Below are positions 3,952 to 37,020 of a stretch of 41,644 nt of DNA, piece after piece. The position numbers and the translations under genes were made by a program. Numbering within the stretch: position 1 is the stretch's first letter; each line of letters begins with the position of its first letter. The DNA is from a virus (taxonomy: Duplodnaviria > Heunggongvirae > Uroviricota > Caudoviricetes): IMG/VR virus record IMGVR_UViG_2617271072_000007. The stretch is one strand, 5' to 3'. Below the pieces are notes generated by a model, which was not told where the DNA came from, did no database searches, and saw only the letters and a program-made list of their open reading frames with translations.

Positions 3952-5147
3952 GACTCCACCGTTATAACGATATTTTCCGGGGTACAGGACGCAGATTCGT
4001 TGTATCTGATATCAATGTTTGATGACGACAAAGCCCCCGGGGATTTCCCAATCGTCAGTTCCTGAATATCGTAATAGCGTGCATTCCCGCCACTCACCAC
4101 GCCAAGATTCGCCGGTGAGTAAATGCGACTTAAAAGGACCGAATCACCAATCATCAGACTATTGATATAGTCGGAAATAGCCTGCTGGATCTGCTGCCCT
4201 ATCTGTGAGGTATAACCCGTAAAAACTTTTAATTTAATCCGGGCATAAACAGGCACATCACTGGAACGCGAGAATTTGATTACATGGGGATTGCCGTATT
4301 TATCCGGAACCGTAACGGATGTTGTACCGTGAGTGGCTGTCCCCTGGCCTTTATTCCCTCTGATAGCCTGAGCAATATCCGTCACATCACCGCCATCTAC
4401 AATTACAGCAACAGAGTGTGGCGGTAACCCGTTACCGTCCTCCGAACCAGTATCGTTTTCATAGAGTTTGTGGCGGGTTACACCGGTAACATTAGAAACA
4501 GCACCATCCAGTGCTTCAAATGGGGTTATTGATGGCAACGCAACACTTTGCGACTGGCGGATACGTAACTCCGCATCAGTTTCTGCCGGAGTGCCCACAG
4601 TGGCTGCAGCAGGATTGGTTACCGAAACCCAGCCACGGGTTGGCGTATTAATTTCAGTGATAGTTCCAGCCAGCGCCGCCACTGCACCACTGACGGAACA
4701 TGTTGCGGTCACCATCACTGTACCATCCACGCCTACCACCACTGAAGCAGGCAAACGCCATATCACATTATTACTGTCTTTCACGCTGCCATTAATGATG
4801 GTTGTTCCGGCAGTTCCTGTAAGAAGCAAATCAACCGTAGAGTTCGTCGCGCCTTTACGTGAAATACCATTTATTTTCACGTTACTGGTCAGTGCAGCCC
4901 CATAGCCGGTTGCCGGTGAAAAACAGTTGTAGACAGTTATCGCCGTATTATTGGCATCATGAATCGCCAGCGCCATCAGAGCCACCATCTGGCCGTCTTT
5001 GCTGTCCGGTTCGAGGTAGGCATCACTACCATAAATCTGCTGAAAATAGCTAATCAGGGTGCTGAGTATCGTCTGATAATCAGGCGCACTGATCCCCTCC
5101 GCGGTTACCTTTGCAGATAAACCGAGAGAATCAAGGTTCAGAGCCAT
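3948..5147 (-). CDS. baseplate J-like protein
   Basis: 399 aa; conserved position between W-like and gpI-like genes. Confidence 0.8.
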   Translation of the reverse strand: MALNLDSLGLSAKVTAEGISAPDYQTILSTLISYFQQIYGSDAYLEPDSKDGQMVALMALAIHDANNTAITVYNCFSPATGYGAALTSNVKINGISRKGATNSTVDLLLTGTAGTTIINGSVKDSNNVIWRLPASVVVGVDGTVMVTATCSVSGAVAALAGTITEINTPTRGWVSVTNPAAATVGTPAETDAELRIRQSQSVALPSITPFEALDGAVSNVTGVTRHKLYENDTGSEDGNGLPPHSVAVIVDGGDVTDIAQAIRGNKGQGTATHGTTSVTVPDKYGNPHVIKFSRSSDVPVYARIKLKVFTGYTSQIGQQIQQAISDYINSLMIGDSVLLSRIYSPANLGVVSGGNARYYDIQELTIGKSPGALSSSNIDIRYNESASCTPENIVITVES

Positions 5148-5501
5148 TACGCCTCCGATGTAACAGTCGTTATTCCATAAAGAGTGTCGATTTCAGCGGA
5201 AAACATGACACGTCGGGTCGTGGTATCCACCGTCGTATTGAAAGAGAGGATTGATTTAACGCCCTGCGTTTCCAGAATGCGCTTACGGATCGCCAGGTTG
5301 TAGGTTTCCGGCTTCTGCCTGCCCAGCACGGACTGGATCCATGGAGTCCCTTCGGTGGTGTCGAGAAACCATTGCCCATACCACAATTCGAATCGCGTTT
5401 TTTACCGCCTGCGCCACGGCCTCCGGTGAGTTAATCAGCCAGGTGTCATCACCGCTGCCAAAGGTGTAATCACCATCGGCGTCTTCACGTCTGTATCGCA
5501 T
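5147..5501 (-). CDS. baseplate wedge protein (gp25/W-like); frame broken by a 1-nt indel
   Basis: ORFs 5283..5501 and 5147..5386 join into one protein if the A6 run (plus T6 at about 5398-5403) is A5. Confidence 0.6.
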
Positions 5502-6253
5502 CAGTTTACCCCATCGGTATTGCTTCCACCGCGCTGAACACCGCCATGAGTGTGCGTATCATCGATTGGCTTGCCGTTAGCCTTAACGCTCCCCAAGAAC
5601 TCAACAGCACCAATGATTTTTGAAGCCACACCAGAAACAACAGACCCCACCATGCCCCCCATCCAGGTTAACAGGCCATGAATGGTTACTTTCTCAGAAA
5701 AATCAGCCAGAGGGGCAACCACATCAAGACCACCCGGGGCGACAATTTTAATTTTCCGGGTATCAGGATTAAGCTCAAAATAGGTGCTGCCGTCGTCACT
5801 ACGCAACTGTGTGGCACTGGTATTAATACCGCTAATCTTCCTCGCCTGCGACTGGGGACCGACAATACAAAACGCATCCGATAAATCATGCATTCTGTCA
5901 TCGACCGGCTCCTGTATCCCACCGCTCTGCCACCAGAAATCAATACAACGATCGGCAAAAACGACAAGACACTCATCCCCGGCTTTAACCGGAAAAGTCA
6001 ACGTACAGCCTCCGCCGCGCGGAAATACCACTGGCACATCCACCAGCAACGGGTAATTTTTGGTAATGCGGTTACCGTCGTTATCCTTTTCAACCGAACG
6101 GATAGCTGGCTGCACAACCGCCGTCACCGCGTCGGGATCGAATGACTGAACAATGCCAGGCAAGGCGACACGGATCTGGTTCTTTGTTGTTTCCCGTTCA
6201 GATTTGAATGTTTCGGCAAGGTCGCCGCTGCGGGTCTGGTCAGATACTGCCAT
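5501..6253 (-). CDS. baseplate spike / assembly protein V-like
   Basis: 250 aa, follows the hub gene in conserved order. Confidence 0.7.
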   Translation of the reverse strand: MAVSDQTRSGDLAETFKSERETTKNQIRVALPGIVQSFDPDAVTAVVQPAIRSVEKDNDGNRITKNYPLLVDVPVVFPRGGGCTLTFPVKAGDECLVVFADRCIDFWWQSGGIQEPVDDRMHDLSDAFCIVGPQSQARKISGINTSATQLRSDDGSTYFELNPDTRKIKIVAPGGLDVVAPLADFSEKVTIHGLLTWMGGMVGSVVSGVASKIIGAVEFLGSVKANGKPIDDTHTHGGVQRGGSNTDGVN

Positions 6254-6270
6254 TTAGTAGGCTCCAGAAA

Positions 6271-6298
6271 GCAAAAAACCCGCCGGGTGGCGGGTTCA
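6271..6298 (-). terminator. rho-independent terminator
   Basis: Minus-strand stem AACCCGCC / GGCGGGTT with 4-nt loop followed by U6. Confidence 0.7.
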
Positions 6299-6312
6299 TT
6301 ATTGAAGTTTCA

Positions 6313-6552
6313 TTACTGCTTGTTTGCTTCTAACGCTTCAGCTATTCGGCGAAGATACTCATTGTTTTTAAATGAAACCATGATGCACTCAAAGAATATT
6401 CGGCAAAATACAGCACATAACAAAAGCACTAAAGCGCCAGCAGCCTTCCCATTAACAAACGTTATAATGGCGGCAACAACCAGAAGTAACATTGTGATGC
6501 CATACAGAACGTTGATGATTTTTGGAGTTATTAATTTATCAAATCCGAACAT
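6313..6552 (-). CDS. small inner-membrane protein (moron)
   Basis: 79 aa, two hydrophobic helices, RBS AGGAA, followed by its own terminator. Confidence 0.6.
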   Translation of the reverse strand: MFGFDKLITPKIINVLYGITMLLLVVAAIITFVNGKAAGALVLLLCAVFCRIFFECIMVSFKNNEYLRRIAEALEANKQ

Positions 6553-6605
6553 GCGACAAATTCCTTATCGTGAAAGTAGAAGTATCACATTATAATTACG
6601 AGTGA

Positions 6606-6947
6606 TTAATCAACAATCTTTTTGCATGGAAAGGAACCGATGATTTTCGGCGCATCCATGCTGTTCTGCAGCAGTTGGACATTCAGGAATCGCGTTTCGG
6701 TACCAGGGCGACGAATGTATTCAAAGCCGTAGTTGTTACCGTCTTTGGCAGGCATAAGCCCCATGTCTACTTTCAAACCATTGGTACCCAGTTCGGTGAT
6801 TTTTTGAGAGGTAACTTTTTCACCGTTGATTGTCGATAACTCGCCCTGGTTTGCAACCATAGTGTAGCCACCGCATTTAACCGTGAAGCCATCCGCCCAC
6901 GCACTGCACGCAGAAAAGACAGCTAACAGAAAAATAATACCCCTCAT
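6606..6947 (-). CDS. secreted protein or lipoprotein (moron)
   Basis: 113 aa; signal peptide MRGIIFLLAVFSAC with possible lipobox Cys; RBS AGGGGA. Confidence 0.6.
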   Translation of the reverse strand: MRGIIFLLAVFSACSAWADGFTVKCGGYTMVANQGELSTINGEKVTSQKITELGTNGLKVDMGLMPAKDGNNYGFEYIRRPGTETRFLNVQLLQNSMDAPKIIGSFPCKKIVD

Positions 6948-6950
6948 TGC

Positions 6951-8012
6951 TCATCCCCTTTGCAAAGCCGATTGCGTATACAGATCCGCCGCGCCACGCG
7001 CTTCGCACATCATATCCATGTACCACGCCTGGCCCCTTGTATCGCCACTGTACATAATCCCGCGCACAATATAAACGCCATCCGTTGCGATGCTGGCAGG
7101 CTGCGATGTGGTGCCGCTGAGCGTGATATTTCCGTCCGTGTTCTGGTCGGTGATCTGACCACCAGCCATCGCAATATCGTTGTTCGACAACGCGGTACGA
7201 TAGACGGAAGCCTGATCCAGCTGAATGAGCCCGTTAACCCGGATGTTCGGATTAATAAGAGCGCGGACGTTTACGCCGTTGCCGATGGTCTGCTGCGGCA
7301 TGCCAATAAGCCCGGTAGCACTGTTGAGCACAATCGCTTCGTGAACATATTCATTAGTCGCCACCATCTGGCGCTGACCGTCCACGAATTGCCATGTTGC
7401 GCCACATTGCTCGGCTACGTTATCCATTAGATGCCGCGTCATGCCAAAGAGCACCCGCCCCCGGGGGAATACAGTAGCAGGCATTTCAGGCGTCAGGCCT
7501 TCGGTCACACCTTTGGCTTCGAAGTCTTTCATCAGCGCACGGTTCACATCAGCGACCGTGTAACCGGCAGCCAGCGTCTGTGAGGTTATACTGGTGGCAA
7601 AAGCCAGATCAGTATCTGCTGCCTGAATCAGGACGTAGGAATCAACCGGACTGTCTTTTCCTGTGACCGAGTAGCGAATTTCACCGCTGAAAATCAGTCC
7701 GTAGTTGCGACCATCACTCTGGCCCACGTTCGCCGCGTCAACTTCCCGCACTGTCCCGACGTCGCTTGCCGACACCTCCGGCGCGATACCGTCGTAACCC
7801 GCAATCAGACGCACTTTCGAAAACTCCTGCCCGGTAATTCGGTTCACAGTATCTGCCGAAAGGTTATAAATTTTGATAGTCCCTACCCGGGACGCGCTGC
7901 TGATGTTGAACCAGTCGATCGTAAAGGTGACTTTGAAATCACTTAGCTCAATTCCCTGACCGTTCCCGTCCACAAGCTGCAGCTCGAAATGTCTCATCCA
8001 GTTCTGTGACAT
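6951..8012 (-). CDS. baseplate hub protein (P2 gpD / Mu gp44-like)
   Basis: 353 aa, position between tape measure module and spike. Confidence 0.65.
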   Translation of the reverse strand: MSQNWMRHFELQLVDGNGQGIELSDFKVTFTIDWFNISSASRVGTIKIYNLSADTVNRITGQEFSKVRLIAGYDGIAPEVSASDVGTVREVDAANVGQSDGRNYGLIFSGEIRYSVTGKDSPVDSYVLIQAADTDLAFATSITSQTLAAGYTVADVNRALMKDFEAKGVTEGLTPEMPATVFPRGRVLFGMTRHLMDNVAEQCGATWQFVDGQRQMVATNEYVHEAIVLNSATGLIGMPQQTIGNGVNVRALINPNIRVNGLIQLDQASVYRTALSNNDIAMAGGQITDQNTDGNITLSGTTSQPASIATDGVYIVRGIMYSGDTRGQAWYMDMMCEARGAADLYTQSALQRG

Positions 8013-8014
8013 GC

Positions 8015-8317
8015 TTACTCCGTTGATACCAGTAAATGACTGCGCCCGCCCAGGTCAGTTTTCGTGGGATAATCCTGTGTGTTGTCATCACAGACCACCA
8101 ACAGCTTAAAACCAAGTCCCATACAGGCGTACTGCGCCAGCAGATCAGCGCCAGTGACGAGAGGAATACCGGAGATTACCGGCTCCCCTCTGTCATTCAG
8201 CAGGTCCATAATCCAGTAAAGATCGCGCCATATGATGCTAATCCGCCAGGTGACACCACCCAGGACGATGCTGAACTGCTGGTTGTCCGCTGTCAGCGGA
8301 ATTTCCTGAATTGTCAT
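8015..8317 (-). CDS. tail protein, function unassigned
   Basis: 100 aa, translationally coupled inside the tail operon. Confidence 0.45.
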   Translation of the reverse strand: MTIQEIPLTADNQQFSIVLGGVTWRISIIWRDLYWIMDLLNDRGEPVISGIPLVTGADLLAQYACMGLGFKLLVVCDDNTQDYPTKTDLGGRSHLLVSTE

Positions 8318-8904
8318 TAGCCGCCCCCCAGTAATGACGCCACGTTACCCGTGATGCTTTTCAGCAGTGAAGTATCTGGAGGTTTTGTGGTTTTGTTGCC
8401 GCTGTTCTGTACCGCCGAGGTGCTGGCCCCTTCCTTCATATTGGTTTTATCCGCGACGGTAATCTGCTGTGTCCGGGAGATAAGGACCTCCCTCAGGGTA
8501 AGAACGGCGGACAGGACGTTTTCGGTTGTCTTGTCCGTCGTCACTTCCAGCGCCCGGATCAACATGTTGCTGTACAGTCGTTTACCGGTTACCACATCGA
8601 AGGGGATACGGCTTTCCTGCAGATCCAGTAGCTCCTGATACGTCTGCTGAGGACTCAGGCCGAGCAGGCTGGTAGCTGTCAGATTACTGGCAAAATCCAG
8701 CAATGCGCCGCCACCGGCGAAACCAACCTCCATCACCACTTCTGACGGTTTTTTATAGGCATGATCAGCGACAGCAGCCCCGACCTCTACCGGATGCTCT
8801 GTTATTTCAAGCATATCTGTATGCTTCTCTGAAATAACAACACTGGGAACAATCATTCCTATTTTTCTGCTCTGCTGATGAAAAAGTGTAGAGAGAATAT
8901 CCAC
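8317..8904 (-). CDS. tail protein, function unassigned
   Basis: 195 aa, immediately after the tape measure gene. Confidence 0.45.
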   Translation of the reverse strand: MDILSTLFHQQSRKIGMIVPSVVISEKHTDMLEITEHPVEVGAAVADHAYKKPSEVVMEVGFAGGGALLDFASNLTATSLLGLSPQQTYQELLDLQESRIPFDVVTGKRLYSNMLIRALEVTTDKTTENVLSAVLTLREVLISRTQQITVADKTNMKEGASTSAVQNSGNKTTKPPDTSLLKSITGNVASLLGGG

Positions 8905-10891
8905 TAACCCACCCTCACCTGATTACTTCGCATGACCTGAGCATTTGCAGACTGTTGCCGACGTGCAACCTCATTACCGACAGCGTGCGGATCTCCGCCA
9001 CCGTAAATGTGGTAAGTATTTTGCTGATTAACCTCTGTCATTTTGCCACTAATTCCCGCCACGGCAGCCTTATTAATCAGCTCTCGGGAATAGATATTTC
9101 TTCCATTTTCATGCTGGATAATGCTGCTCATCAATGCTGACATGGTTTGCGGCTCGCTCATATTCAGGGCAGCCCGGGGATCCACTCCCAGTCGTTGCGA
9201 TACAGCCCTGATATACGCAGTTGTGTTGTTATTATCAGACGCAGGTGCCCAGGTAGAGATAATTTTCTCCACACTGTTTATTCCCCGTCCGGCGTACAGC
9301 ATTAACTGACGAGCAAGAGCCCGTAATCCATCAAAAGCAGTTTCAAATCTGGCAAATCGCCCGCCCGGGCGTTCAAGAGAAGCCCCTGCCTGACCAGCAA
9401 AATTAAGGTTTCCCGGATTGTTATTCCGTTCTCCTCGTTTCGTAGCCTGTGCATATTGTTCCGGCTCATCATCACCAAACCAGCCGCGTACCGTCCGGCC
9501 CACGCTGCGGGGATCGAATCCCCAGTGCTCTTTAATCCAGTCGGCAGTACTGTTAGCGCTGTCTGTAACTATCGGCATCGCTGACGGATTTTCGCTGCCC
9601 TGATTAAGTATCTGTTTGCCGATGCTGACGGCATCAACCCAGCGGCCATCTTTGATAGCGTTGAGCAGGTCGGCGATCATGTTCAGCATTTTGCTGAATT
9701 CGCCCATCTGGTCGATGAAGTTGCTGAAATCCCACTTCAGGGACCATGATTTGGGGTCAATATTGAGCAGTTTCGCCAGCGCTTTCACCAGGTCGTTAAC
9801 GGTCGTTTTAAGGTCACGAACCATCTTCAGCGCGGCATCAACCTCCGGTTTCCACTTGCCCCAGTCAATCAGGCTGTCGCCGCCTTCCTTCCAGGTCTGA
9901 TAGTCCTCCCACAGGAGGGCAATCCCCGCCGCCAGCGCGGTAATGAGGCCAATCGGCGACATCCAGAACGTACTGTTCAGAATGCGCAGCGCAATCGTCA
10001 GTGCGCCAAACAGCGAGATCAACTCCCGCGTTTGCTTATCCAGCGATTGCCACCAGGTGATGAGGCTTGATGTTCCTTCAATCAGTCTGAAGAACAGCCG
10101 CCCGATAATATCCCCGAGCGCCAGAATGCCTTTTATGGCTTTCGTCAGGGTCTGCTCGATACGCGGGAAGTTGTCCAGGATATGGCGGCGCAGGGTGTCC
10201 AGCGAACCCGCAAGCCCACCCGCAAGATTAGAGCCGATTTTGTCACGGGCCATGCCTGCCATCGCGCTAAACTCACGCAGGGAGGTCATAAATTTGTTGG
10301 AGCTTCTGGCCGCCTCTTCAGCATTGAAGCCGATAGCTTTCGCCATTGCGCTGTACTGCCCGGAGAAACCACCCACACCCCGGCGCATCGCCATAAGGGT
10401 ATTTTCGTCAATGCCCAGCATCTGCGCATACTGGTTAGCCCGGTAATACGGCATGCCGCTGAGCTTCTGGCCTACACCTGTAAAAATAGCGGCCATGTCA
10501 CGCATGTTACCGCTGGCATCCCGTGTCTGTACCCCCAGGCGATTCAGAAATCCCTCTGCACCGGGATTGTTACGAATAAACCGGGAGAGGCTTTCCAGAG
10601 AAGATCGCGCAGCGTCCACGCTGCCGCCAACCCGCGAAACCGCATATCCAATAGACTGAATTCCCTGGACTGTCGCGCCAGTGCGCTGTGACGCCCAGTA
10701 AAGATTATCCAGGCCGGAGGCAATCTTAGCCGTAAAGGCCACCACGGACAGTGCAGCTCCTTCAACGGCCAGTCCCATTTTGATGACATTTGCAGTTGTA
10801 CCGGCGAGGACAGAACCGAATTTTTTGCTCCAGCATCATCCACACTGAAGCCAAGCGAGACGAGGAAATCTTTAATAGTTTCAGCGTTCAT
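8904..10891 (-). CDS. tail tape measure protein; frame broken by a 1-nt indel
   Basis: Start MNAETIKDF at 10891 with RBS GGAGAGAGG; frame switches at the A6 run (plus T6 about 10821-10826) into the 624-aa ORF 8904..10778; an A7 restores one frame. Confidence 0.8.
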
Positions 10892-24980: not shown

Positions 24981-25154
24981 CCTGTACCAACCTGTACCCA
25001 CCTGTACCAGCTCTTTTCAAACCTTTTCCCCAAGCGACTTATATATATATATGGGGTTCTTAGTAATTAGGTTGGTACAGATGGTACAGTTGGTACTGGC
25101 CTTTAAATTCAATTAGTTAAAATGTACCAACCTCTATTTTGAGGTTGGTACAGG
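24981..25154. repeat. iteron-type replication origin candidate
   Basis: Three tandem 10-bp repeats CCTGTACC(A/C)(A/C/G), a (TA)n tract near 25040-25052, then at least four more copies of the TGTACCAAC core in both orientations. Confidence 0.6.
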
Positions 25155-27327
25155 TTGGGACACCGCCTCAAAAATTCGAGTCATTTTCCCCCCAATTCGC
25201 CTTTGGGCACGCTTATACCCGCAATTTTGCAAAACATTACTAATTCGCATTTCTTCGCGTTTTCCGATGCGGTCAGGATTTAGCCCAATCGCATCACGCA
25301 AAACATCACTTGCGCGTAAAAATTCGCAATTTCGCGGAAGTTCATTAGTCATCAGGTCTGGCGTGTCGAGCCATTTCTCTACCGTTTCAAGCCAAGCATC
25401 CTTGATGGTGTACTGTTCATGGACACTCGCTGCCAGTTGTTCAGCCTCACGGAACTGGATACCCCCCAGACGCTGAAACACCTCACGAGCCTCAGCCCAA
25501 AGTAAAAGGAGATCTCTTTTTATCGCTTTCACGTCGACTTTCGACACTTCCACGGGGAGCCAGCGACGGTTACCAGTCTTGTCCGCAAGGAATTCGTCCT
25601 CATTGGTGGTACCAACGAACACCAGGCGACGAGGAAACTGGGTGGCGAACTCCCGGTATTTCGGGATCCAGTTTTCGTGAGTACGCGTCACAAACGCTTT
25701 GATTGACTCCAGCTCTTTGGTATTAAGTCCGCGCAGTTCACCAATCTCTGCCACCAGCCGACCACGCATTTTTTCGAGCGAGATCATCGTCTTTTTCGGC
25801 AAAAGAGATTTCAGTAAAAAACGCAGGATCAGGGCTCAGTGCCTCCACTCCGGAAGACTTACCGCAGCCCTGCGGACCAACGAGGATCGGCACCATATCC
25901 GCTTTGATGCCTGGCTCCAGTACTCGCCCCGCCAACGCGGTCCACATGAACATAGACACCGCACGGGTATAAGGCGTGTCGGCGGTACCGAAGTGCGTAT
26001 GGTAGAAACATTCGATGCGCGGCACGCCATCCCACTCCAGTCCGTTCAGCCAGGTGATCGCTGAATCGAATGGTTGTTCATCGGCTGCAAGTAACACCAC
26101 ATCGCGAATAAGTTCACGACCAACAGGTTTAAATCCCCGCTTTTCCATCGTGATGCGCAGGCGCGCATAATCCGCATCGGTGAATGCCCGCCATTGTCCG
26201 GATCCTGCAGGGGCAAACATGATTTCGTCGCGGAACTGGTCAAAGCGAATATCGATGTCCACAAAATCAGGGCGTACTACTGCTTTGGCTGCGTTGCTGA
26301 TGGTTGCCTCGATACGCCCCCATTTATCACGCTCGAAAGCAGGCAGCGGTAAAGGTTCCGCCACTTCGATGCTGGTCAGATCTTCGAAATCGTCGTTGCG
26401 GATCCCGATGGCATTCAGGAAATCTCCGTCATCACGATGCGCGCAACTGGCATGCAGGCATTTAAAATGCCCCTGCTCAAAGCCTGCGGTTCCCGCAGGA
26501 AAATAAACTGTGCTTGTTGGATCGCCTCCGCTACTGTGGCCGTCTTCAAACGGACAGCGGATATATCGTTCACCGTTTGCGCCATCCAGCAGCGTCCAGC
26601 CATTGGCATCAAGATATTCAGCTGTATCATCCGTCGCGCCGGGCGTGAATGCTGAACGGTCGCGCATCTTCGTGTTGCCCGCTTCGGTGGTTACCGACAC
26701 AGGGAGTTGTTCAGCCAGGCGCTGCCACAGCGTTTCAAGCTGCTCACCTGTAATAGCCGGAGGTTCATCCGGCAAACCACCGTCCCATTCAATACGCGCG
26801 CCGCTGCTGTGCGTACCACAGGCAACGAACTGCTGCCCGTTCGCCAGCAACTCGATAATGCCCATATCCCCCGCCAGGCGATGGATACGCTTACGGAAAT
26901 CACCATCAACGGCCAGCAGATACAGACACTTATTACTGTTTGCTCGCCAGCGTCGCGGCGGCGACTCACCCAGAAGTTGCACAAGTGTTTTGCGAATATC
27001 TGCCTGAATGTCTTCATCTTCGCTATCGCAGTCCAGCGCCAGCCAGCCATGGCCTGTACGCACGCAGATGCCATAATCCGGTTCATTCGACCAGCGGGCA
27101 AAATCATGCTCAGTAACAACATGCCCGGTCCATTGAGCAATACCGGTGACCTGGCGGTCCCGGTTATAGCGACTCGGCGTCTTACCCAACGCTTTCAATT
27201 TACTATCAGGGGATATGGTCGCACTGGGGTTACATACAACTGGGAGAAGATGAGCAGTCCGCCCCAATACCAGGTCGAAATGAAACCACTCATCAGGCGT
27301 AGCGCCCCATGGTTTGCTATCGGACAT
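25134..27327 (-). CDS. replication primase-helicase (prim-pol N-terminus, VirE/D5-type NTPase C-terminus); frame broken by a 1-nt indel
   Basis: Walker A GPQGCGKSS, Walker B-like VFVGTTNEDE; ORFs 25738..27327 and 25134..25802 join at plus T5 about 25792-25796. Confidence 0.85.
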
Positions 27328-27330
27328 GGG

Positions 27331-27531
27331 TTACACCTTTTGTCTAGCTGTCACTTCCTGAAAAAGTTTTTCTATCGCACGTACTGTAGAAAAGCGAGGG
27401 TCAGAATGAACCCCGGTAAGAAGCCGACTAATAGAAGACTGCTTCACGCCTGCAATTTCGGCAATTTGGTTTTGGGTATACCCTGAATCAATCAAGCTTT
27501 TGACCATCTCTTGTGGTGTTAGTCCGGACAT
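27331..27531 (-). CDS. cro: Cro-like HTH regulator
   Basis: 66 aa HTH (QNQIAEIAGVKQSSISRL), divergent from the repressor, RBS GGAGA. Confidence 0.75.
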   Translation of the reverse strand: MSGLTPQEMVKSLIDSGYTQNQIAEIAGVKQSSISRLLTGVHSDPRFSTVRAIEKLFQEVTARQKV

Positions 27532-27672
27532 ATTTAAGTCTCCACTTTCGTCTATAGCGCAAATTTATACGAAAACGGATTACTCAGCAATACAGCAATT
27601 CTATGTCATCCTAGATTAAAATATCCGATAACGCATAATCACCGTCCCTGTATACAACATGGATGAATCCAA
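27532..27672. promoter_or_regulatory. OR-type operator region with divergent pR/pRM promoters (not resolved)
   Basis: Intergenic between cro and cI; contains GATAACGCATAATCACCG and TATAGCGCAAATTTATACG, related to motifs at the pL promoter. Confidence 0.5.
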
Positions 27673-28348
27673 ATGATTGATACTACCGATATCCTTTCTC
27701 AAAACATCAAGTACCTGATGGACAAAGCCAAGATAAGCTCGATAACTGAGCTGGCACGTCGGTTACAGCTGAACCAACCAACGCTACACAGGCTGGTATC
27801 AGGAGAGGTGAAAGATCCGAAATACGCAACGTTAAAGCAGATCGCCAACTACTTCCACGTGTCACCAATAGACTTGGCAGAAAGGAGCCTTCAAGAAATG
27901 GAGAAAGAGGACGCGACAGGTATAAAAAACGTATATTTCTCTTAGGTTTAATAAAGTACCTGTTTTGGGAAACACTCAGCTAGGCGTTGGAGGACTTTGG
28001 AGCGACACCCAATATTCAGTAGGTAGCAGTGATGGTTTCATATACTGGCCGACAAAGGATGAAGATGCATACGCCCTGAAATGTGTTGGTGATTCAATGA
28101 TGCCTAGAATCAAAGAGGGGGAGTTCGTAATCGTCGAACCCAACCACGACTACACTCCTGGTGATGAAGTACTTGTGGTTACCCGGGACGGTGAGGTCAT
28201 GGTGAAAACCTTCTTGTTCGAACGCGATGGCCTGTTCCATCTAATGTCTGTAAATGAAGATCATCCACCAGTCAGAGTACCACGCGAAAACATTGAAAAA
28301 ATCCATTACGTGGCGGGGATCGCCAAATCCGCGCTACGTATGTACTAA
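27673..28348 (+). CDS. cI: CI-type repressor (HTH plus S24 LexA-like peptidase); frame broken by a 1-nt indel
   Basis: HTH in 27673..27945, GDSMMP peptidase motif in 27965..28348; frames join at the A6 run about 27924-27929. Confidence 0.85.
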
Positions 28349-28378
28349 CCTTTACAGTCTGATAACTTACTTCTGATC

Positions 28379-28408
28379 AAACCGCTCTCCACAAGGGCGG
28401 TTTTCTTA
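28379..28408 (+). terminator. rho-independent terminator after cI
   Basis: Stem AACCGC(TCT) / (GGG)GCGGTT of about 9 bp followed by TTTTCTTATTT. Confidence 0.7.
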
Positions 28409-28432
28409 TTTGCAAAATAATTCATTTTCGTA

Positions 28433-28483
28433 TTGACACAAAATCCCATAACGCATATAAATACGATATCGCATAATTAATGC
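28433..28483 (+). promoter_or_regulatory. pL-like early-left promoter with overlapping OL-type operators
   Basis: TTGACA (28433-28438), 16-17 nt spacer, TATAAAT; operator-like AACGCATATAAATACG and palindrome CGCATAATTAATGCG overlap it. Confidence 0.65.
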
Positions 28484-28497
28484 GTTTTTTTAATACT

Positions 28498-28509
28498 GGC
28501 TCTTTAACA
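28498..28509 (+). promoter_or_regulatory. boxA-like element (nut-type antitermination signal)
   Basis: GCTCTTTAACAA about 30 nt downstream of the predicted pL start; matches the rrn / lambdoid boxA core; no boxB hairpin identified. Confidence 0.45.
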
Positions 28510-28659
28510 AACTGAACCGCGTGACAGGTAAGCCGCAGTACTCCTGGCAAAACGAAATAGCACCCGATGGGATCGAGGTAAGCGCCGAGTCCGTATGCGT
28601 ACGGTAAGCGTAGAGGACAACACCGCGACAAACTGATAAGTCACGCAAGTTGAAACGCC

Positions 28660-28683
28660 CCGACGATGGGGCGCTTAGTTCCT
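28660..28683 (-). terminator. putative terminator of the 174-aa minus-strand gene
   Basis: Hairpin CGCCCC-GACGAT-GGGGCG; on the minus strand followed by UUUC. Confidence 0.45.
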
Positions 28684-28767
28684 TTTGGGGTGGGGTGAAG
28701 ATCAGTCCATTGAGTCAATCCGAAGTTCAGCATCTACCACTACACCACCACCAAAGAGAACTGCTAA

Positions 28768-29292
28768 TCATCTGGCAGGTTGTAACGGTGCAGGAATTTT
28801 GCCACTGACTTCTATATTTCGGGGAAATTTATATTCAGCGGAGCATTTATGACACTTGAGAATTTTATAAGCGGCATTAGAAGTATGGTATTGAAGTATA
28901 GACTTCATACCCGACTCATAGCATGTAGTACAAAGATAATGAGGCTTGAACTCAGGATCGTCAGTAGGCTTCAGTACATAGACCACCGTATTGGTAATCG
29001 GGTGGTACATTTCATAGTTCATTTTCTCACTATCCCAATCCTGTTTCTTTTCAAGAAGGGATTCGAGTTCAACAATGCGCTGTTTAGCTTCGTTCAAAAG
29101 CTCCGTTAGTGCGAATTGTCCAGTACGCGCATCAATTAGTTTATCAAGTAGATCGATAGTTTTACTTTTAACATTGTAATCCACCTGCAACGCATTAACT
29201 TCTTTTGCTAAATCAACAGCACCTTTCAAAGCACCACCAGCACTAGTGGCCGCCTCAGTTATACGCCGTACAAGTCCTTTTTCTTCAGACAT
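28768..29292 (-). CDS. coiled-coil protein with C-terminal C4 zinc ribbon; immunity-region cargo
   Basis: 174 aa; CTTC-x22-CHKC; transcribed towards the pL promoter, antisense to the early-left operon. Confidence 0.55.
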   Translation of the reverse strand: MSEEKGLVRRITEAATSAGGALKGAVDLAKEVNALQVDYNVKSKTIDLLDKLIDARTGQFALTELLNEAKQRIVELESLLEKKQDWDSEKMNYEMYHPITNTVVYVLKPTDDPEFKPHYLCTTCYESGMKSILQYHTSNAAYKILKCHKCSAEYKFPRNIEVSGKIPAPLQPAR

Positions 29293-29420
29293 CTTAATTC
29301 TCTCTAAAACTATAGGGGTAAAGAGATATTAGCCGAATTCTCGCTGTAGGGGTACAGAGAGAGCCATCTCGTCTGACGTGGTTAAAACTGACATCCATGT
29401 AATTGCTGTGTGTAGCCTTT

Positions 29421-29446
29421 GCCCGCCTCAAGTGACGGGCTTTTTT
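29421..29446 (+). terminator. putative plus-strand terminator (tL-like) before the early-left genes
   Basis: Stem GCCCG / CGGGC with 10-nt loop followed by T6. Confidence 0.4.
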
Positions 29447-29505
29447 ATGTCTGAAAGCGCACTCGCAACAGCGCGCTCCCCGATATGAAAAAAGGAATAC
29501 AACCG

Positions 29506-29655
29506 ATGAAACCTGAACACATCCATCGACTGACGGGGCGCGATGTTCTCCGTTATCGCCGTAAAAACTTCGATTTGATGACCGGTCTGGCCGTTGCCAC
29601 TGCGCTCGGTCTGATCATCACTTTCATTCTCCTTGTAGCGAGGACCACAGTATGA
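29506..29655 (+). CDS. small membrane peptide (49 aa); not in the ORF track
   Basis: RBS AAGGAA, Arg-rich N-terminus, C-terminal helix LAVATALGLIITFILLV; stop overlaps the next ATG (ATGA). Confidence 0.4.
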   Translation: MKPEHIHRLTGRDVLRYRRKNFDLMTGLAVATALGLIITFILLVARTTV

Positions 29656-30554
29656 GTTTAGAAACCAGTCTCGAACTTAATAATCAACTTCTGGCACAAC
29701 ATAATGCGCTGCTTGAACGTCTTATCCGCACAATGGCATCAGGTATTGTTATGCATCCTGACACGATTTCACGAGTGCAGGAATGTCGGGATACAGCAAC
29801 TGAAGCTGAAAACATGTCAGCGGCAATGACACTGGATGATCTGGAGTTCAGCGACGTTATCGCACTGGCTGGTTTCTACCCGGTAGCCACCCCTATCACA
29901 GAAGACATGCTGCAACGTGCTGTTGCCTACCGTGATGCTGAAGGCGATAAACGAGTAGTTCAGATTGATGCTCTCGACAGCGCATTACAGGGCGTCAAAC
30001 GAGCCAGGGCGCTGCTTAAACCTGCTCTCCTGGACCTGTCCCGTAACATTCTTAAGTTCTGGGACGACCTGCCAACCATCGGCGAGCGACGTGCTTTTGC
30101 CGAGCAGCTACTTGATGCACCTGCAGATGGGCGTGATGAAGTTAAGCCGAAAAAGGCCAGTAACAAAGATGGAGAACGCACGGGGCCGTTTTACGTCAAA
30201 AATGTATCCGGCACAGCAGCCAGTGAACTCCACACCTTACGCAAGTTGAACGAGATGCTTAAAAAAGGCCATATCGAGATCAACCGTGTTGAGTACCTTC
30301 AGCTGCAGGAAGAATTTGCACGCAAAGACGCAGCAAATTCCAGCCAGAATAATGACGCCAAAGATGACCATACAATTGATTTCGCGGCACTACGCAAACA
30401 AGCTGAAGGGTTGATCCTCCAGTTAGCAAAAGGGGGTTACCGGGCAGAAGCTATTGCAATTCTGGAAAAACAGGGAGCCAGGAAACTTGGTGAAGTAACG
30501 GATGAAAATCTCGCTGAAGTAATCACCCTGGCTGAAAAAGCACTGGAGGGTTAA
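29652..30554 (+). CDS. hypothetical early protein
   Basis: 300 aa, translationally coupled to neighbours, no motif recognised. Confidence 0.55.
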
Positions 30555-30556
30555 TT

Positions 30557-31858
30557 ATGCCAGACGTTCATGCACGACTTTCCCCGTCATCGGCGCATCG
30601 ATGGATGCGCTGCCCAGGAAGTCTGGCGCTGGAGGCCACACAACCGGATAAAGAAACAACTTTTGCAATCGAGGGCACTGCAGCGCACGCGCTTGCTGAA
30701 AAAGTTCTACGAAACAGGCAAAGCCACCCGGAACACTACGCCGGATGCAATGTTTCTATGTTTCTCGGCTCATACCCCCTTCGCGAAAATCCTGATGATA
30801 CATCTGGCCCACAGGTGGATGATGAAATGGTCGAAGCCGTTGGCCGGTATGTTGATACGGTCTGGACTCTTGCACAGAATAATGAACTATTGGTTGAACA
30901 ACGTGTTGATTTCTCACATATAACGGGTGTGGAAGAATCTTTCGGAACTGCCGACGGCATAATCATCGCGGGTAACGAATTACAAATCCACGACCTGAAA
31001 TATGGCAAAGGCGTCCGCATTGATGCAGAACAAAATGAGCAACTACAACTGTATGCTCTGGGTGCGCTCGAACAATTCAGCATGCTGTATGACTTTGAGA
31101 CTGTAAGATTATTTATTCACCAGCCAAGGCTCAACCACGTTTCAGAATGGTCGTTAACCGTACAGGAACTTCAGTCTTTCGGTGAACGGGCACTGGAGGC
31201 CGCAACCAGTGCGATCCTTGTTCTCAATATTGCTGAATGCGAAGGCATTGAGACACTACCGCTGGAAAACTTCATACCTGGAGAAAAACAGTGCCGCTTC
31301 TGTAAAGCAAAAGCTATTTGCACTGCCCAGAAAATGCAGCATTTACAAACAGCGGCCAGCGACTTTGAAGATCTGACAAAGCCTGTCAGCGAAATAATCA
31401 CCAATGCCAGCGCACGTGTACCTCTGTTAACCATTGAGCAGCTTGCGGAGATCTATAGCCAGGCCGACTTTATTGAATCCTGGCTAAAGGCAGTACGGGA
31501 CCGGGTTCATAATGAACTCAATGCCGGACATCCGGTACCGGGGTTTAAACTGGTAACAGGAAAACAAGGTAACCGGGCCTGGAGTGATGAAGAGGCAGCT
31601 CGCGCACTTCTGAAGGACCAGTTCAGGTACAAAACTGAAGAAGTATTCGACTTTAAACTTATTAGTCCCACAAAAGCCGAAAAACTTATCAAAAAGGCCA
31701 GTCCGCGCCGTTGGTCAAAAGTCGAGGCACTGATAACACGAGCTGATGGTAAACCCACCGTCGTTCCCGAGTCAGACCCACGCCCCGCACTCAATATCAA
31801 CCCTGTAAATGATTTCGACGACGTATCCGACGATACGCTAACCGCAGACCTCATCTGA
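30557..31858 (+). CDS. PD-(D/E)xK nuclease, DUF2800 / Cas4-like
   Basis: 433 aa; ADGIII ... IHDLKYGK nuclease motif and Cys cluster [10 protein letters not shown]. Confidence 0.7.
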
Positions 31859-31873
31859 TTTAAGGAAATACCC

Positions 31874-32422
31874 ATGAAACTGAAGCTGAACAATGTTCGT
31901 CTGGCCTTCCCGTCTCTGTTTGAAGCTAAAACTGTAAACGGCGAAGGCGATCCGCGTTTCTCCGCAGTATTTTTAATGTCTCCCAAACACCCACAACTGG
32001 AAGAAATCCGTAAAGCTATGAAGCAGGTAGCGAAGGAAAAATGGGGGGAGAAGTGGGAGTCCATTTATAACCAGCTGGAGAAAAAACTCAATCTGTGCCT
32101 GCATGATGGTGATGAAAAAGCAGAGTATGAAGGCTTTCCCGGCAATTTCTTCCTGAACGCTGCTAACAAAGCGCGCCCAGCTGTTCTTGATCGCGATCGT
32201 TCGCCACTAATTCAGGCTGATGGACGTCCCTATGCAGGGTGCTATGTAAACGCCGTTATCGATATCTGGGCACAGGACAATAATTTCGGTAAACGCATTA
32301 ATGCCTCACTCGGCGGAGTCCAGTTCCTGCGAGACGGCGATGCATTCGCTGGCGGCGGAGTGGCAAGCGCTGACGATTTCGACGATATCAGCGAAGGCGC
32401 TGATGCTGAAGCACTAATTTAA
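31874..32422 (+). CDS. DUF2815-like protein (ssDNA-binding-type partner of DUF2800)
   Basis: 182 aa, N-terminus MKLKLNNVRLAFPSLFEAK, acidic C-terminus. Confidence 0.65.
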   Translation: MKLKLNNVRLAFPSLFEAKTVNGEGDPRFSAVFLMSPKHPQLEEIRKAMKQVAKEKWGEKWESIYNQLEKKLNLCLHDGDEKAEYEGFPGNFFLNAANKARPAVLDRDRSPLIQADGRPYAGCYVNAVIDIWAQDNNFGKRINASLGGVQFLRDGDAFAGGGVASADDFDDISEGADAEALI

Positions 32423-32474
32423 AAAATATTCATCCCCCAGCTACGTGCTGGGGTATCTCATGAGGGAAAGTATA

Positions 32475-33116
32475 ATGTCACAGCCCGTATTAACTAATCA
32501 CCTTAAAACTCAAATCATCAATAACGCACTTGAGAAAGCGGGTATTCCCAAACGTAAATCAGCACTACGAGCTACTCGTGTTGAATGGGCCGAACGTGTT
32601 CGGCTTGCAGCTATCGGGGGCGTAGAGAAAGAAGCTGAAATATTAAAAAATATAAAAAGATTGAATCCATGGTCACAAAAATCCTCTGATTCATTAAAAA
32701 CCAATAGTTCTTTAATTCGAAAAGATTGCTGCATATATCTCAATCTGGCTGGAGCCAGAGCAAACATTTATTTCAATGGCAACTACAGAGGTTATGAATC
32801 AGGAGCCCCCGAGCATATTAATAAAATAGCACCTGCAGAATTTACTCTACTTGGCGAAGATCCTCTGGTAACGGAGTTTTATAGCTTTGATGCTCTCTAC
32901 ACACAAATTAAAAGTGATGAAACCGAAATCATACAGAACGTCAGCGCGGCTCTAAATAAAGTTCGGACAGTAAAACGATTACTGGATGTATGGCCCGAAG
33001 CTAAAGAACTGCTTCCAACAGACGCACCGCCAGTCCCTTTAGCACCAGCAGTACATCGAGAGACATTAAATGAAATGATAGGCCTTCCTACCAATACAGT
33101 GTCTGATACTCAATAA
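32475..33116 (+). CDS. hypothetical protein, AT-rich
   Basis: 213 aa from MSQPVLT with RBS GAGGGA; track ORF 32445..33116 starts at an upstream GTG. Confidence 0.5.
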   Translation: MSQPVLTNHLKTQIINNALEKAGIPKRKSALRATRVEWAERVRLAAIGGVEKEAEILKNIKRLNPWSQKSSDSLKTNSSLIRKDCCIYLNLAGARANIYFNGNYRGYESGAPEHINKIAPAEFTLLGEDPLVTEFYSFDALYTQIKSDETEIIQNVSAALNKVRTVKRLLDVWPEAKELLPTDAPPVPLAPAVHRETLNEMIGLPTNTVSDTQ

Positions 33117-33799
33117 CAAGGGGGATGCTTATTATATGATTTTGAACGTTTTACAATCTCGTTAAGAGGCGTGAAATCAAAATCTCTGAATAACACATCA
33201 GGATACTTCGCTCTTGCTTTATCCAGCAGACCAGTTAAAGTATTTTTTGTGTTACCCAACATTGTATTAACCGCCACTACATGTCTAATTTCTGGAGGTT
33301 TATCTATACCACCAGAAATTGCTTCATTAAGAACCGACGCCAGTGGGGTTTGTCCCTTACTTGTTGAATCCCACAGCGTCATTAACAGACGAGCTGCGTC
33401 TATAAATAGCTTTTTGTCAGCATTTGGCTTGACAGTAATACCAGAACTACCTGAGCCAGAACCGGAACGTTCTATTGCTGCACTGGTATCCGATTTCATA
33501 GGATTAAATAACGGCAGCTCTGTACAACCGATACGCCGAATGAAATCCTTTGCAACATCTCTACCACAGAAAAAAGCCCCTGTACAATTTTCATCAGAGC
33601 GTTTTTTAAATGAAAAACAATAGTACTGATCGGTTAACGGATAACCGGAATAACTGGTTTTAGTTTGTCCAGTAATAAGTTTCAGGTGTGCAACAGGCTG
33701 AATAATAAAATCCCGAACTATCGCATCTTTTATGTCGTTACCACGGTGACAATAATATTCAGGTAATCCATTAGGCTGTCTCTTATTACCCACAGTCAT
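33110..33799 (-). CDS. hypothetical two-domain protein, AT-rich, antisense to the operon
   Basis: 229 aa; Cys/His-rich N-domain, SGSGSGSSG linker, C-domain; convergent 7-nt overlap with the preceding gene. Confidence 0.55.
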   Translation of the reverse strand: MTVGNKRQPNGLPEYYCHRGNDIKDAIVRDFIIQPVAHLKLITGQTKTSYSGYPLTDQYYCFSFKKRSDENCTGAFFCGRDVAKDFIRRIGCTELPLFNPMKSDTSAAIERSGSGSGSSGITVKPNADKKLFIDAARLLMTLWDSTSKGQTPLASVLNEAISGGIDKPPEIRHVVAVNTMLGNTKNTLTGLLDKARAKYPDVLFRDFDFTPLNEIVKRSKSYNKHPPCY

Positions 33800-33860
33800 T
33801 AGTTGTCTCCTTTAATTCATGATATCTAGCATTTAACCATATACCATATGAGGATATTTT

Positions 33861-35924: not shown

Positions 35925-35931
35925 TACAAAG

Positions 35932-36960
35932 TCACTTAAAATCCCTAGATAACATCTGCGAAGCAGCTGATGCTGTATAAACTCCAGTATGTTTTATTTC
36001 TGCAGCTATTTTGTAGCCATCCTCCTTAAACTGCGTAAGCATTGAGCTTAAGGAACCAAGTTTTTTAGTATTCAACACCATTCTAACGACAGTTCCTTCA
36101 TGATAATGACCTAACTCTATATGCTTCTTTCCGTGTTCATCTAGATATATTGCATGGTCACCGCTACAAATAAGAAAACTACCGCCAAGTTTACATATAC
36201 GGCTGATCATATAAAGGCCAAATCCCGAATTATGCCAAGGATTTCTTGTATTGATTCTCGCCCCCTTAAAATTTTTACTAGAAATAGATGGCATTAACGC
36301 TAACTGAATGGCTTCAGAATCATTATCAGCTTCTATATAAGGGTTCTTCGATAGAGATTTTTTCATTCCTATACCATTATCAGAAATTGTTATTTCAACA
36401 CGGTCATAAGAAGGCCAATACTGTGCACAATATTCAATCACCTTTGAATCACTATGTTCCACAACATTACGCATAATTTCCCTAATAGAAAATGTCAAAG
36501 CATCAATGAGGTCGCCTTCTTCTTGGCGAGCAAGAATCTTTGCTAATTTACCAGATCGTTCCTCAACTATCTCTTGCACCTCAGTATATTTATCGTTAGC
36601 TTCATCTATAACTGTTTGAACACGAAGAATTGTAAATGGAACAAAATTATTATTTCCATCTGTACATCCCGGTTCACGGCCATGCTTTAACCCGAAGGCT
36701 CGAAAGAATGCCATATTTGCGGCATAATCCTTATTCTCATGCCCGCTACAAAAAAGTTTAAAACCATCAATGTTCTTTTTCTGTTTTCGATGGAAGTCTC
36801 GAATATGCTTAGCAACATAAACCATTGTAAATGGTTCAATCCTTCCCATATGCGAAAAATCGATTGTTATTTGCTGTTGACCTGAATGTTTTTCAATTTC
36901 ATTGCAAAAATTAAATATCTTTTCAGGATTACATGAAGAGGGAAATAAGATTCGTGACAT
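35932..36960 (-). CDS. GHKL-type (histidine-kinase-like) ATPase with unknown N-terminal domain; cargo gene
   Basis: 342 aa; N-box NVVEHSDS, G1 DNGIGM, G2 GFGLYM; AT-rich; opposite strand to the operon. Confidence 0.65.
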   Translation of the reverse strand: MSRILFPSSCNPEKIFNFCNEIEKHSGQQQITIDFSHMGRIEPFTMVYVAKHIRDFHRKQKKNIDGFKLFCSGHENKDYAANMAFFRAFGLKHGREPGCTDGNNNFVPFTILRVQTVIDEANDKYTEVQEIVEERSGKLAKILARQEEGDLIDALTFSIREIMRNVVEHSDSKVIEYCAQYWPSYDRVEITISDNGIGMKKSLSKNPYIEADNDSEAIQLALMPSISSKNFKGARINTRNPWHNSGFGLYMISRICKLGGSFLICSGDHAIYLDEHGKKHIELGHYHEGTVVRMVLNTKKLGSLSSMLTQFKEDGYKIAAEIKHTGVYTASAASQMLSRDFK

Positions 36961-37020
36961 ATTAATTCCTTATACTTGTTTTATTTGATACTACCCAATA
37001 AGTGTTAACAAGGCAAATTT

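Follow-up and report, generated by a model that had tools for sequence, protein, structure and literature searches.

A terminator-closed cargo slot between the baseplate hub and spike genes of an Escherichia coli prophage

Why should two small genes and an apparent transcription terminator lie between the baseplate hub and the central spike of a tailed phage? The question is raised by positions 6271 to 6947 of a 41,644-nucleotide (nt) stretch of DNA from a virus of the Caudoviricetes (IMG/VR record IMGVR_UViG_2617271072_000007), referred to here as the window. The genes from hub to spike are all on the minus strand, where the order of transcription is the hub, a gene for a 113-amino-acid (aa) protein that we call A, a gene for a 79-aa protein of the DUF4282 family, the terminator and the spike. 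An earlier note, made from the letters alone, had taken the two small genes together with the terminator for a single moron inserted among structural genes. Everything that it described is present, with the correction that the strand is minus, and it is partly supported: the concept was right and the boundary wrong.

Comparison of gene content, synteny, breakpoints, base composition and terminator distribution, together with a fold model and a census of cargo, leads us to conclude that A is a lineage-wide backbone gene of the late operon, not exchangeable cargo; that the DUF4282 gene belongs to an exchangeable cassette; and that the terminator is a constant of the slot, found with many cargos and not brought by the DUF4282 gene. 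What we say below of promoter activity, of termination and read-through, of export and disulfide formation, of membrane topology and of the functions of both proteins is proposed from these comparisons.

An exchangeable cassette between conserved flanks

Save for one substitution at 6903, the interval is identical to the corresponding part of a complete prophage of Escherichia coli MINF_2E (NZ_LR890651.1; locus L012), which is integrated beside yfhL. The phage group to which it belongs includes Salmonella phage SEN34 (genus Brunovirus), Yersinia phage YP3 and several induced E. coli phages, and the interval is the place where hub and spike meet in the late (baseplate) operon of a temperate myophage of SEN34/Brunovirus type, here a prophage in E. 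coli. Gene A (6606..6947) starts 4 nt past the hub stop codon, with GGGGA about 6 nt 5' of its ATG. The DUF4282 gene (6313..6552), separated from A by a 53-nt spacer, has AAGGAA 8 nt before its ATG, so the two small genes with ribosome-binding sites that had been noticed between hub and spike are both confirmed. A scan of the interval gave no Rfam family at threshold, only a sub-threshold snoRNA chance match, and none of its plus-strand open reading frames (ORFs) matched a PHROG family.

Megablast found the hub-to-spike stretch in 353 complete E. coli genomes, of which only some retain its middle. Nine relatives read in detail have the same flanks and different inserts; in E. coli these are the YafO toxin with a 190-aa partner, two hypothetical proteins, a DUF2335 protein, an HMG-box protein, three hypothetical proteins, and an unannotated antisense ORF. 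The last of these is in E. coli NRZ96606 (L006, ~1356-1781), where the slot has no annotated gene, the terminator comes directly after A, and the apparent antisense ORF would encode a small protein with a cysteine pair. On the spike side, homology to the window resumes at 6285-6299, just inside the hairpin of the terminator, in eight of the ten loci that were fetched; on the hub side, relatives that share the A allele become homologous again at 6603-6619, within the final codons of that gene. These two breakpoints place the exchangeable unit at 6298-6605 (minus strand), a 308-bp cassette made up of a promoter-like spacer and the DUF4282 gene. Its GC content of 36.0% lies below that of the late operon (51.5%) and of the neighbouring hub (54.4%), spike (51.7%) and A (46.5%).

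The cassette occurs in 86 of 5426 E. coli genomes, in 84 of them at 99% identity or more, and the hub in 408 of the 5426 complete genomes (~7.5%). It is also found on a diverged backbone, that of E. coli LWY24 (L011), whose hub is only 51% identical. There, at 4154-4292, a non-coding remnant, duplicated from the 3' end of a window-type A, separates a 30%-identical A allele from the cassette. This remnant is the footprint of a cassette transfer by recombination within A, and because of it the exchange seems to use the 3' end of A and the terminator with the start of the spike gene as homology anchors.

As used here, after passages of PMC3594210, a moron is recognised by its absence or replacement in close relatives, by deviant base composition, by a promoter and a terminator of its own, and by expression from the repressed prophage. 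The cassette is absent or replaced in close relatives, its composition deviates, and a predicted hairpin with a run of T follows the DUF4282 gene; by these three marks, and with a promoter suggested by sequence, it is, by all appearances, a moron in the sense of Juhala and Hendrix. Gene A, in contrast, is not absent or replaced in that manner. The idea of a two-gene moron is therefore borne out for the DUF4282 cassette, through its breakpoints, its 36% GC and its replacement in relatives, and fails for A.

The spacer of the cassette contains a sigma-70 promoter-like site (6589..6616, minus strand), with TTGTTG as the -35 (6616-6611), a 16-nt spacer and TATAAT as the -10 (6594-6589). It matches at 9 of 12 positions, the -10 perfectly; the -10 ends 36 nt before the DUF4282 ATG, and the -35 hexamer falls inside the final codons of A. 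Under a relaxed rule, only 2 of 188 tiles of 120 nt from the late operon give any promoter-like match, one of them with a perfect TATAAT. Comparable sites precede the DUF4282 genes of Hafnia and Pantoea loci (L033 and L015), and a weaker one that of a Pectobacterium locus (L029).

The cargo of the slot in relatives

We extended the comparison with a species census, in which the hub alignment served as query and 80 loci were drawn from species-representative genomes; 70 of these hold both hub and spike. The hub directly abuts the spike (within 52 nt) in 6 of the 70, all with the most divergent hubs, and 64 bear inserts. Cargo amounted to 82 ORFs of at least 50 aa, falling into 47 clusters (31 of them singletons) from 45 species loci. 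Three cargo proteins have PADLOC matches: one in Erwinia oleae (L096) that matches the C-terminal half of PD-Lambda-1 (E = 5e-83), an Mrr-like nuclease in Rouxiella (L059) and the candidate defence protein PDC-S42 in Pantoea ananatis (L076). The slot also holds a Fic/DOC-family protein and a Phd-family antitoxin (Phd in Yersinia, L079), T5orf172-type nuclease domains, an EACC1 conflict-system domain in E. coli (L024) and, directly after A in Photorhabdus viridis (L093:5920-6210), a member of the T4 Imm family that scores 54 bits against a cut-off of 27.9. Because the recognisable cargo points to defence, we conclude that the slot is a hotspot for defence and exclusion genes, such as P2, P4 and lambdoid prophages are already known to possess. 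Literature searches with DUF4282, STY1065/STY2022, Brunovirus and SEN34 found nothing that describes this hub-spike slot, and no mention of DUF4282.

The census brought up two further observations. Pantoea stewartii ATCC 8199 (NZ_CP046558.1) carries six different copies of the tail module (L041, L051, L055, L091, L092 and L094), with hubs 50-93% identical to that of the window and junctions that are empty, hold A only, or hold A and cargo. A locus labelled 'Chryseobacterium sp. 18061' (L043, CACSKA010000001.1) has a hub 91% identical to that of the window and the same A gene and terminator; an enterobacterial prophage hub under this label suggests that the assembly is mislabelled or contaminated.

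The DUF4282 protein

The 79-aa protein matches PF14110 (DUF4282) with 42.2 bits, against a cut-off of 27, over residues 2-71 and profile positions 2-85 of 86. RefSeq gives it the same name, phrog_12129 (E = 8e-48) is of unassigned function, and no NCBIfam model matched. As had been noticed, it is a two-helix membrane protein: hydropathy gives two hydrophobic helices at about residues 13-33 and 38-60, for which the positive-inside rule predicts an N-in/C-in topology with a periplasmic loop of some five residues. Against Pfam at E <= 0.1 only DUF4282 and YbhQ came up, and neither the Imm family PF14373 nor HK97 gp15/YebO. Homologs 58-70% identical occupy the same hub-spike slot in Pectobacterium, Hafnia and Erwinia. 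Elsewhere the gene separates the tape measure from the distal tail genes in siphophage-type prophages of Klebsiella, and follows the lysis cassette of a lambdoid prophage of Pantoea, a position that is held by bor in lambda. A terminator is found 3' of every copy examined.

What might such a protein do? Since relatives keep known defence and exclusion genes at this dock, a protective role would be the most likely one; by analogy we favour exclusion or defence for the DUF4282 protein, at a likelihood a little below even. The pattern of conservation also suits something else. Invariant across genera are FDKLITPKI at the N-terminus, RxFFE where helix 2 ends, and FKNNEYLRRI at the C-terminus; the helix cores and the loop vary. 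In the predicted topology the invariant motifs belong to the cytoplasmic side and to helix 2, so that binding of a conserved host factor fits at least as well as blocking of a tail. This pattern favours, as far as a predicted topology can, a lysogenic-conversion or host-physiology factor, for example a small protein that regulates a transporter of the inner membrane or a stress system, that takes no part in exclusion, and it is compatible with an effect on phage entry. A chromosomal, non-phage copy amid metabolic genes, the weak similarity to the host inner-membrane protein YbhQ (E = 8e-4), and a Pfam family that has no assigned function and is not phage-specific by annotation all lean in the same direction. 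However, DUF4282 lies within a prophage in four of the five contexts examined, it twice adjoins genes for envelope-crossing parts (tape measure, hub, spike), and the slot of relatives holds recognised defence and exclusion genes. The two roles may also overlap, for DicB reportedly blocks phage entry via a host transporter (PMC6832061). On balance we judge a purely physiological role to be unlikely.

A membrane-damaging protein, either holin- or antiholin-like or an abortive-infection toxin, is improbable. It would agree with the size of 79 aa, with two helices, predicted N-in/C-in and followed by a charged C-terminal tail, which is the layout of a class II holin, and with the toxin-antitoxin genes in the slot of relatives. 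The MINF_2E prophage, however, already has a lysis cassette with a lambda-family holin, an endolysin and a spanin-like gene; the DUF4282 gene stands alone, without an antitoxin-like partner; and its stable carriage (the 84 genomes at 99% identity or more) and chromosomal copies tell against a toxic product.

Gene A stays in place while its sequence diverges

The synteny of hub-spike junctions in related phages, which had been suggested as a check, separates the two genes: the DUF4282 gene is swapped among relatives, whereas A is kept at full length in 57 of the 64 insert-bearing loci of the census, with fragments in 3 and nothing in 4. Eight census loci have A and no further gene. It is also missing from the six lineages in which the hub abuts the spike, and from L008. 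In E. coli relatives that carry other cargo a homolog of A lies 3' of the hub with a gap of 0-3 nt or an overlap; the same holds for SEN34 and for Klebsiella phages and prophages, and even homologs only 27-33% identical (E. coli, Kosakonia) still sit after the hub. A homolog thus follows the hub in nearly every relative, also where there is no cargo, and this removes A from the moron. The SEN34 homolog, gp20 (L010, NC_028699.1 15497-15835), was deposited as a protein of 77 aa; tblastn finds there a full-length 113-aa homolog of A with 69% identity, so its start codon seems to have been mis-called.

A matches phrog_3443 (E = 1e-47) and had no Pfam, NCBIfam, PADLOC or PDB sequence match, the PDB search giving chance matches only. 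One A allele is named 'STY1065/STY2022 family' by RefSeq, despite the lack of an NCBIfam model match, and we describe A accordingly as an STY1065/STY2022-type phage family.

The sequence of A is far less stable than its position. Compared with the window, three E. coli prophages show 96-100% identity in the plug, hub, spike, Dit, tube, sheath and wedge proteins; their A is only 59-69% identical, falling to 43-52% in the N-terminal half of the mature part. The spike is 97-98% identical in relatives with different cargo. Identity drops abruptly about 35 nt before the hub stop codon (near 6985) and rises again over the final third of A. One and the same A allele is found beside tail fibres only 45-67% identical, and an A allele 62% identical goes with a tape measure 98% identical; among fibre, tape measure, hub and spike, the A allele tracks none. 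This independence weakens two ideas, that A masks the receptor of its own fibre and that it inhibits its own tape measure. A thus keeps its place and its fold, and its sequence has been diversified or replaced independently of the virion proteins, a pattern expected for a protein that meets a variable outside partner. We found no promoter-like site upstream of A, which is therefore probably made from the late transcript.

A predicted periplasmic barrel

The earlier note had assigned A a signal peptide and a possible lipobox cysteine. The signal peptide is supported. The presequence (residues 1-18, 6894..6947), MRGIIFLLAVFSACSAWA with DG following the predicted cut, runs from a basic n-region through a hydrophobic core to an AxA cleavage motif. 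Its sequence varies among homologs and the basic-hydrophobic-AxA pattern is kept: nearly all of 118 A homologs have a small-x-Ala motif, mostly AxA, at -3/-1. The cysteine stands less well: the window allele does have FSAC at residues 11-14 (Cys14), with an atypical Phe at -3, and any cysteine at all in the presequence is limited to 14 of the 118 homologs. The conserved lipobox cysteine of bacterial lipoproteins ([LVI][ASTVI][GAS]C) is thus not a feature of the A family. Because the small-x-Ala motif is conserved and presequence cysteines are rare, A is, by its sequence, a Sec/signal peptidase I substrate rather than a lipoprotein, and is most likely cut after AWA by signal peptidase I. In the window allele alone there may be a lipid anchor at Cys14.

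The mature domain (95 aa, 6609..6893) is predicted to be soluble. Modelled with a deeper alignment, it gave an 8-stranded beta-barrel with a predicted local distance difference test score (pLDDT) of 88.7; a model of the full-length protein from a shallow alignment was unusable (pLDDT 50). Two cysteines of the mature part, Cys25 and Cys108, are invariant down to 25% identity and lie in the first and last strands of the barrel model, which fits a periplasmic disulfide. Foldseek searches of the model against PDB and viral models gave nothing significant. The sequence motifs that, together with a barrel fold, mark the MliC/PliC lysozyme inhibitors are not combined in A. A search of 1.8 billion representatives with a profile of A returned giant PKD/Ig-repeat proteins with E down to 1e-33; we rejected these as homologs because their scores are sums of many 5-bit repeat matches.

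Could A and the DUF4282 gene nevertheless be one moron, with A a lipoprotein and the pair masking a receptor in the manner of Cor or Llp? The FSAC of the window allele is followed by Ser, and an A-related domain does occur behind a true lipoprotein presequence (LSGC): the 292-aa protein P0232 has the presequence VVLSGC, an unassigned N-terminal part of 190 aa and a C-terminal A-type barrel domain (57.8 bits). There is also a faint structural match of A to the 'Lipoprotein' of Serratia phage Scapp (TM-score 0.61, E = 9e-3). But A is found whether or not cargo follows it, no promoter-like site precedes it, Phe at -3 with Cys at position 14 makes a poor lipobox, and the distribution of presequence cysteines and small-x-Ala motifs described above runs the other way. 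For receptor masking, moreover, one would look for co-variation with receptor specificity, and the same A allele goes with divergent fibres. We see little chance that this account is right, and retain a backbone gene for a predicted exported barrel, next to a separate DUF4282 cassette.

A terminator closes the slot

The strong intrinsic terminator that had been noticed was borne out, and its ownership was not. The hairpin, GAACCCGCC-ACCC-GGCGGGTTT followed by a T-run (6266..6297, minus strand), ranks first among 26 terminator-like sites in a 20-kb scan. Its stem has 9 pairs, 6 of them G-C, and a 4-nt loop, followed by TTTTTTGCTTT. The hairpin folds with -18.6 kcal/mol (z = -3.4), and none of 200 shuffles folds as well. 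It has the hairpin and T-run of an intrinsic (Rho-independent) terminator, and it ends about 20 nt before the spike start codon.

Rather than being the DUF4282 gene's own, this terminator is slot-wide. Eight of ten relatives share the hairpin with different cargo, the loop varying and the stem being kept. Among the 53 census loci with a clear A, all 45 that bear cargo have a hairpin and T-run, ending 15-24 nt before the spike ATG in 44 and 58 nt before it in one. Of the eight loci with A and without cargo, five have no terminator, one has a weak hairpin inside coding sequence, and two have a terminator in a spacer of about 60 nt. The same detector was positive on 1.06% of control tiles from the upstream tail genes. 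In an alignment of the terminators, four of seven stem pairs are retained through changes on both sides. As the sequences had been selected with a hairpin finder, this covariation test is in part circular; position, and frequency compared with the control tiles, make the stronger argument. The simplest reading is that the terminator would serve as an insulator.

Two other uses of the hairpin come to mind, as a stabiliser of the 3' end of a processed late mRNA and as a homology anchor for cassette exchange. Its sequence, ACCCGC...GCGGGT, is kept across genera and lies exactly at the right-hand breakpoint; an anchor would further agree with the left-hand breakpoint in the conserved 3' end of A and with the duplicated remnant in L011. 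Against either as the main function stand the complete anatomy of an intrinsic terminator, T-run included, a stem kept while the loop varies, sometimes by two-sided changes, and the lack of the hairpin where A abuts the spike without cargo. Both uses are compatible with a terminator, and we give little credence to either as the chief role.

The MINF_2E prophage has a gene of the antiterminator Q family just 5' of its lysis and late genes, and since the prophage encodes Q, late transcription is expected to pass terminators; the lambdoid Q proteins are the established basis for expecting such read-through.

Finally, that both genes are structural or assembly parts of the baseplate is hardly credible: A is kept beside the hub and tightly spaced from it, but its export signal and cysteine pair are conserved, it diverges far faster than its structural neighbours and is missing where the hub abuts the spike and from L008, and DUF4282 is absent from most relatives with structural proteins 96-98% identical. 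In phage E217, whose hub family the window hub matches weakly, the hub gp41 is described as the anchor of the tip gp43, and gp42 is unmentioned among the structural proteins in passages of PMC10329688. The export signal, the absence of A where the hub abuts the spike and the direct anchoring described for the E217 tip make a structural role of A in the virion very unlikely.

Flanking genes and the rest of the window

The flanks of the slot are conserved genes on the minus strand. Upstream lies the hub (353 aa, 6951..8012; phrog_196, E = 2.4e-89; weak match to PF22759 E217_GP41), preceded by the plug (8015..8317), a Dit-like baseplate protein (8317..8904) and the tape measure (8904..10778). Downstream is the central spike (250 aa, 5501..6253), with a PF18352 N-terminal domain (E = 1.7e-44) and a GpV Apex motif; Pfam matches describe it as membrane-puncturing. 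It is followed by genes for a sheath initiator, a wedge and a fibre. The tape measure ends in a muralytic domain at its C-terminus: the RefSeq name is 'lytic transglycosylase', and the Hafnia homolog is matched by PF01464 SLT. In one relative whose other tail proteins are 96-100% identical, the tape measure is 79% identical.

The window as a whole is 99.9% identical to the MINF_2E prophage, with at least 22 single-base indels, mostly an extra A or T (for example at 3336, 5403, 10826, 11121, 16904, 20288, 24668 and 25774; none within 6271-6947). They split ORFs, including those of the sheath initiator (5147-5501, read as two ORFs), a wedge protein, the Q antiterminator and, at its start, the tape measure, and look like homopolymer errors of long reads or early pseudogenisation. 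The distal segment of the tail fibre (1117-2938), which adjoins a pinE-type invertase gene (~501-1091), runs opposite to its MINF_2E counterpart: it is a G-segment-like host-range switch in its other orientation. The early region (5828-20267 of L012, about 25000-40400 of the window) encodes a DNA polymerase, a DEAD/DEAH helicase, a VRR-NUC protein, DUF2800, DUF2815 and VapE-domain proteins, and an 'Nmad5 family putative nucleotide modification protein', which hints at a self-encoded replication module and possibly at DNA modification.

Discussion

How might the pieces work together? We propose that A is exported by Sec and folds in the periplasm as a small 8-stranded beta-barrel with one disulfide, and that it is neither a virion part nor swappable cargo. 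Its fast-diverging alleles would then reflect binding to a variable target, in the envelope or from a foreign phage. Our best guess, which we hold to be somewhat less likely than not, is a late-expressed periplasmic exclusion or anti-reinfection factor, one that interferes with infection of the already infected or lysing cell as T4 Sp, P1 Sim or K139 Glo do. Downstream of A, the dock would accept any gene or genes, and the terminator about 20 nt before the spike would close it. Here its cargo is the 308-bp, low-GC cassette with a sigma-70-like promoter and a predicted inner-membrane DUF4282 protein. In the lysogen the cassette would be transcribed alone, the terminator keeping transcription out of the spike and wedge genes; once the prophage is induced, RNA polymerase with the Q modification would pass the terminator. 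The DUF4282 protein would most likely protect the lysogen from incoming phages at the inner membrane, as HK97 gp15 or T4 Imm do.

Taken jointly, a backbone gene A followed by a terminator-closed cargo dock that here holds the DUF4282 cassette is a reading that we regard as evenly balanced. Several points weigh against it. The -35 of the promoter-like site matches at only 3 of 6 positions, and the site fails the stricter rule of the scan tool. Most of the cargo is without known function, so that an argument from position can be no more than suggestive. PADLOC-DB v2 has no model that matches A or DUF4282, and DUF4282 has no match to the Imm family. The predicted invariant parts of DUF4282 face the cytoplasm, its periplasmic loop is predicted to be tiny, and one copy is chromosomal. 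The A allele follows none of the virion proteins compared and so points to no partner.

Morons and defence hotspots of prophages are already established, and the general picture is in this sense an ordinary one. What the locus offers is precision: the slot, hub - A - cargo - terminator - spike, is sharply bounded, easy to recognise and found across Enterobacterales. It is a ready source of defence and exclusion candidates, with 47 clusters in only 45 species loci. DUF4282 recurs as cargo in three different prophage slots, and its role is testable; A is conserved and carries a predicted export signal yet is far more divergent than its structural neighbours, a pattern typical of an arms race. 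A bolder version would make the hub-spike junction of SEN34-like prophages, which occur in dozens of Enterobacterales species, a purpose-built, terminator-insulated defence dock with two undescribed exclusion families, A and DUF4282. If so, A would be a lineage-fixed, fast-evolving late periplasmic barrel and DUF4282 an inner-membrane blocker of DNA entry, and most of the 47 cargo clusters would be new anti-phage genes; we consider this version doubtful.

Comparison with known systems

The closest analogue of the DUF4282 moron appears to be gp15 of HK97, a moron reportedly treated by Juhala et al. in 2000 and by Cumby et al. in 2012. It is a small inner-membrane protein encoded in the tail operon, with chromosomal YebO homologs, and it blocks DNA entry (passages of PMC3594210). 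Both are small inner-membrane genes between tail genes of a temperate late operon, both come with a terminator and a deviant base composition, and both have homologs outside prophages, YebO there and the chromosomal DUF4282 here. They differ in that the two proteins have no sequence relation, and the block to DNA entry has been shown for gp15 and is only proposed for DUF4282. The site also differs, between chaperone and tape measure in HK97 and between hub and spike of a contractile tail here. T4 Imm (PF14373) is likewise a small inner-membrane protein of similar size, and an Imm-family gene takes the same position, first after A, in the Photorhabdus locus; DUF4282, however, has no PF14373 match, and Imm is an early gene of a virulent phage.

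For A, the nearest parallels are exclusion proteins of the envelope. T4 Sp (spackle), P1 Sim, Glo of Vibrio phage K139, T5 Llp and Cor of phi80 and N15 block peptidoglycan digestion, DNA entry or receptors. Sp, Imm and Cor are listed among exclusion proteins in a passage of PMC11436027. Like Sp, Sim, Glo, Llp and Cor, A would be a small phage-borne protein with an export signal; unlike them it has no Pfam match, is apparently a late gene, and has an allele independent of fibre and tape measure. In fold, the A model resembles PliC/MliC and PhiA, which are small periplasmic 8-stranded beta-barrels, and the lytic transglycosylase domain of the phage's tape measure would in principle be a possible target.

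The slot itself is most like the hotspots of P2 and P4, which were reportedly described by Rousset et al. in 2022; the PD-Lambda systems are said to come from Vassallo et al. in 2022. In those hotspots, as here, unrelated cargo is swapped at a fixed site between phage genes among near-identical backbones. The present slot differs in lying inside a baseplate operon, in being closed by a terminator and in being preceded by a gene for a predicted exported protein. To the known picture of morons and hotspots, then, this locus adds two uncharacterised protein families and a well-defined slot.

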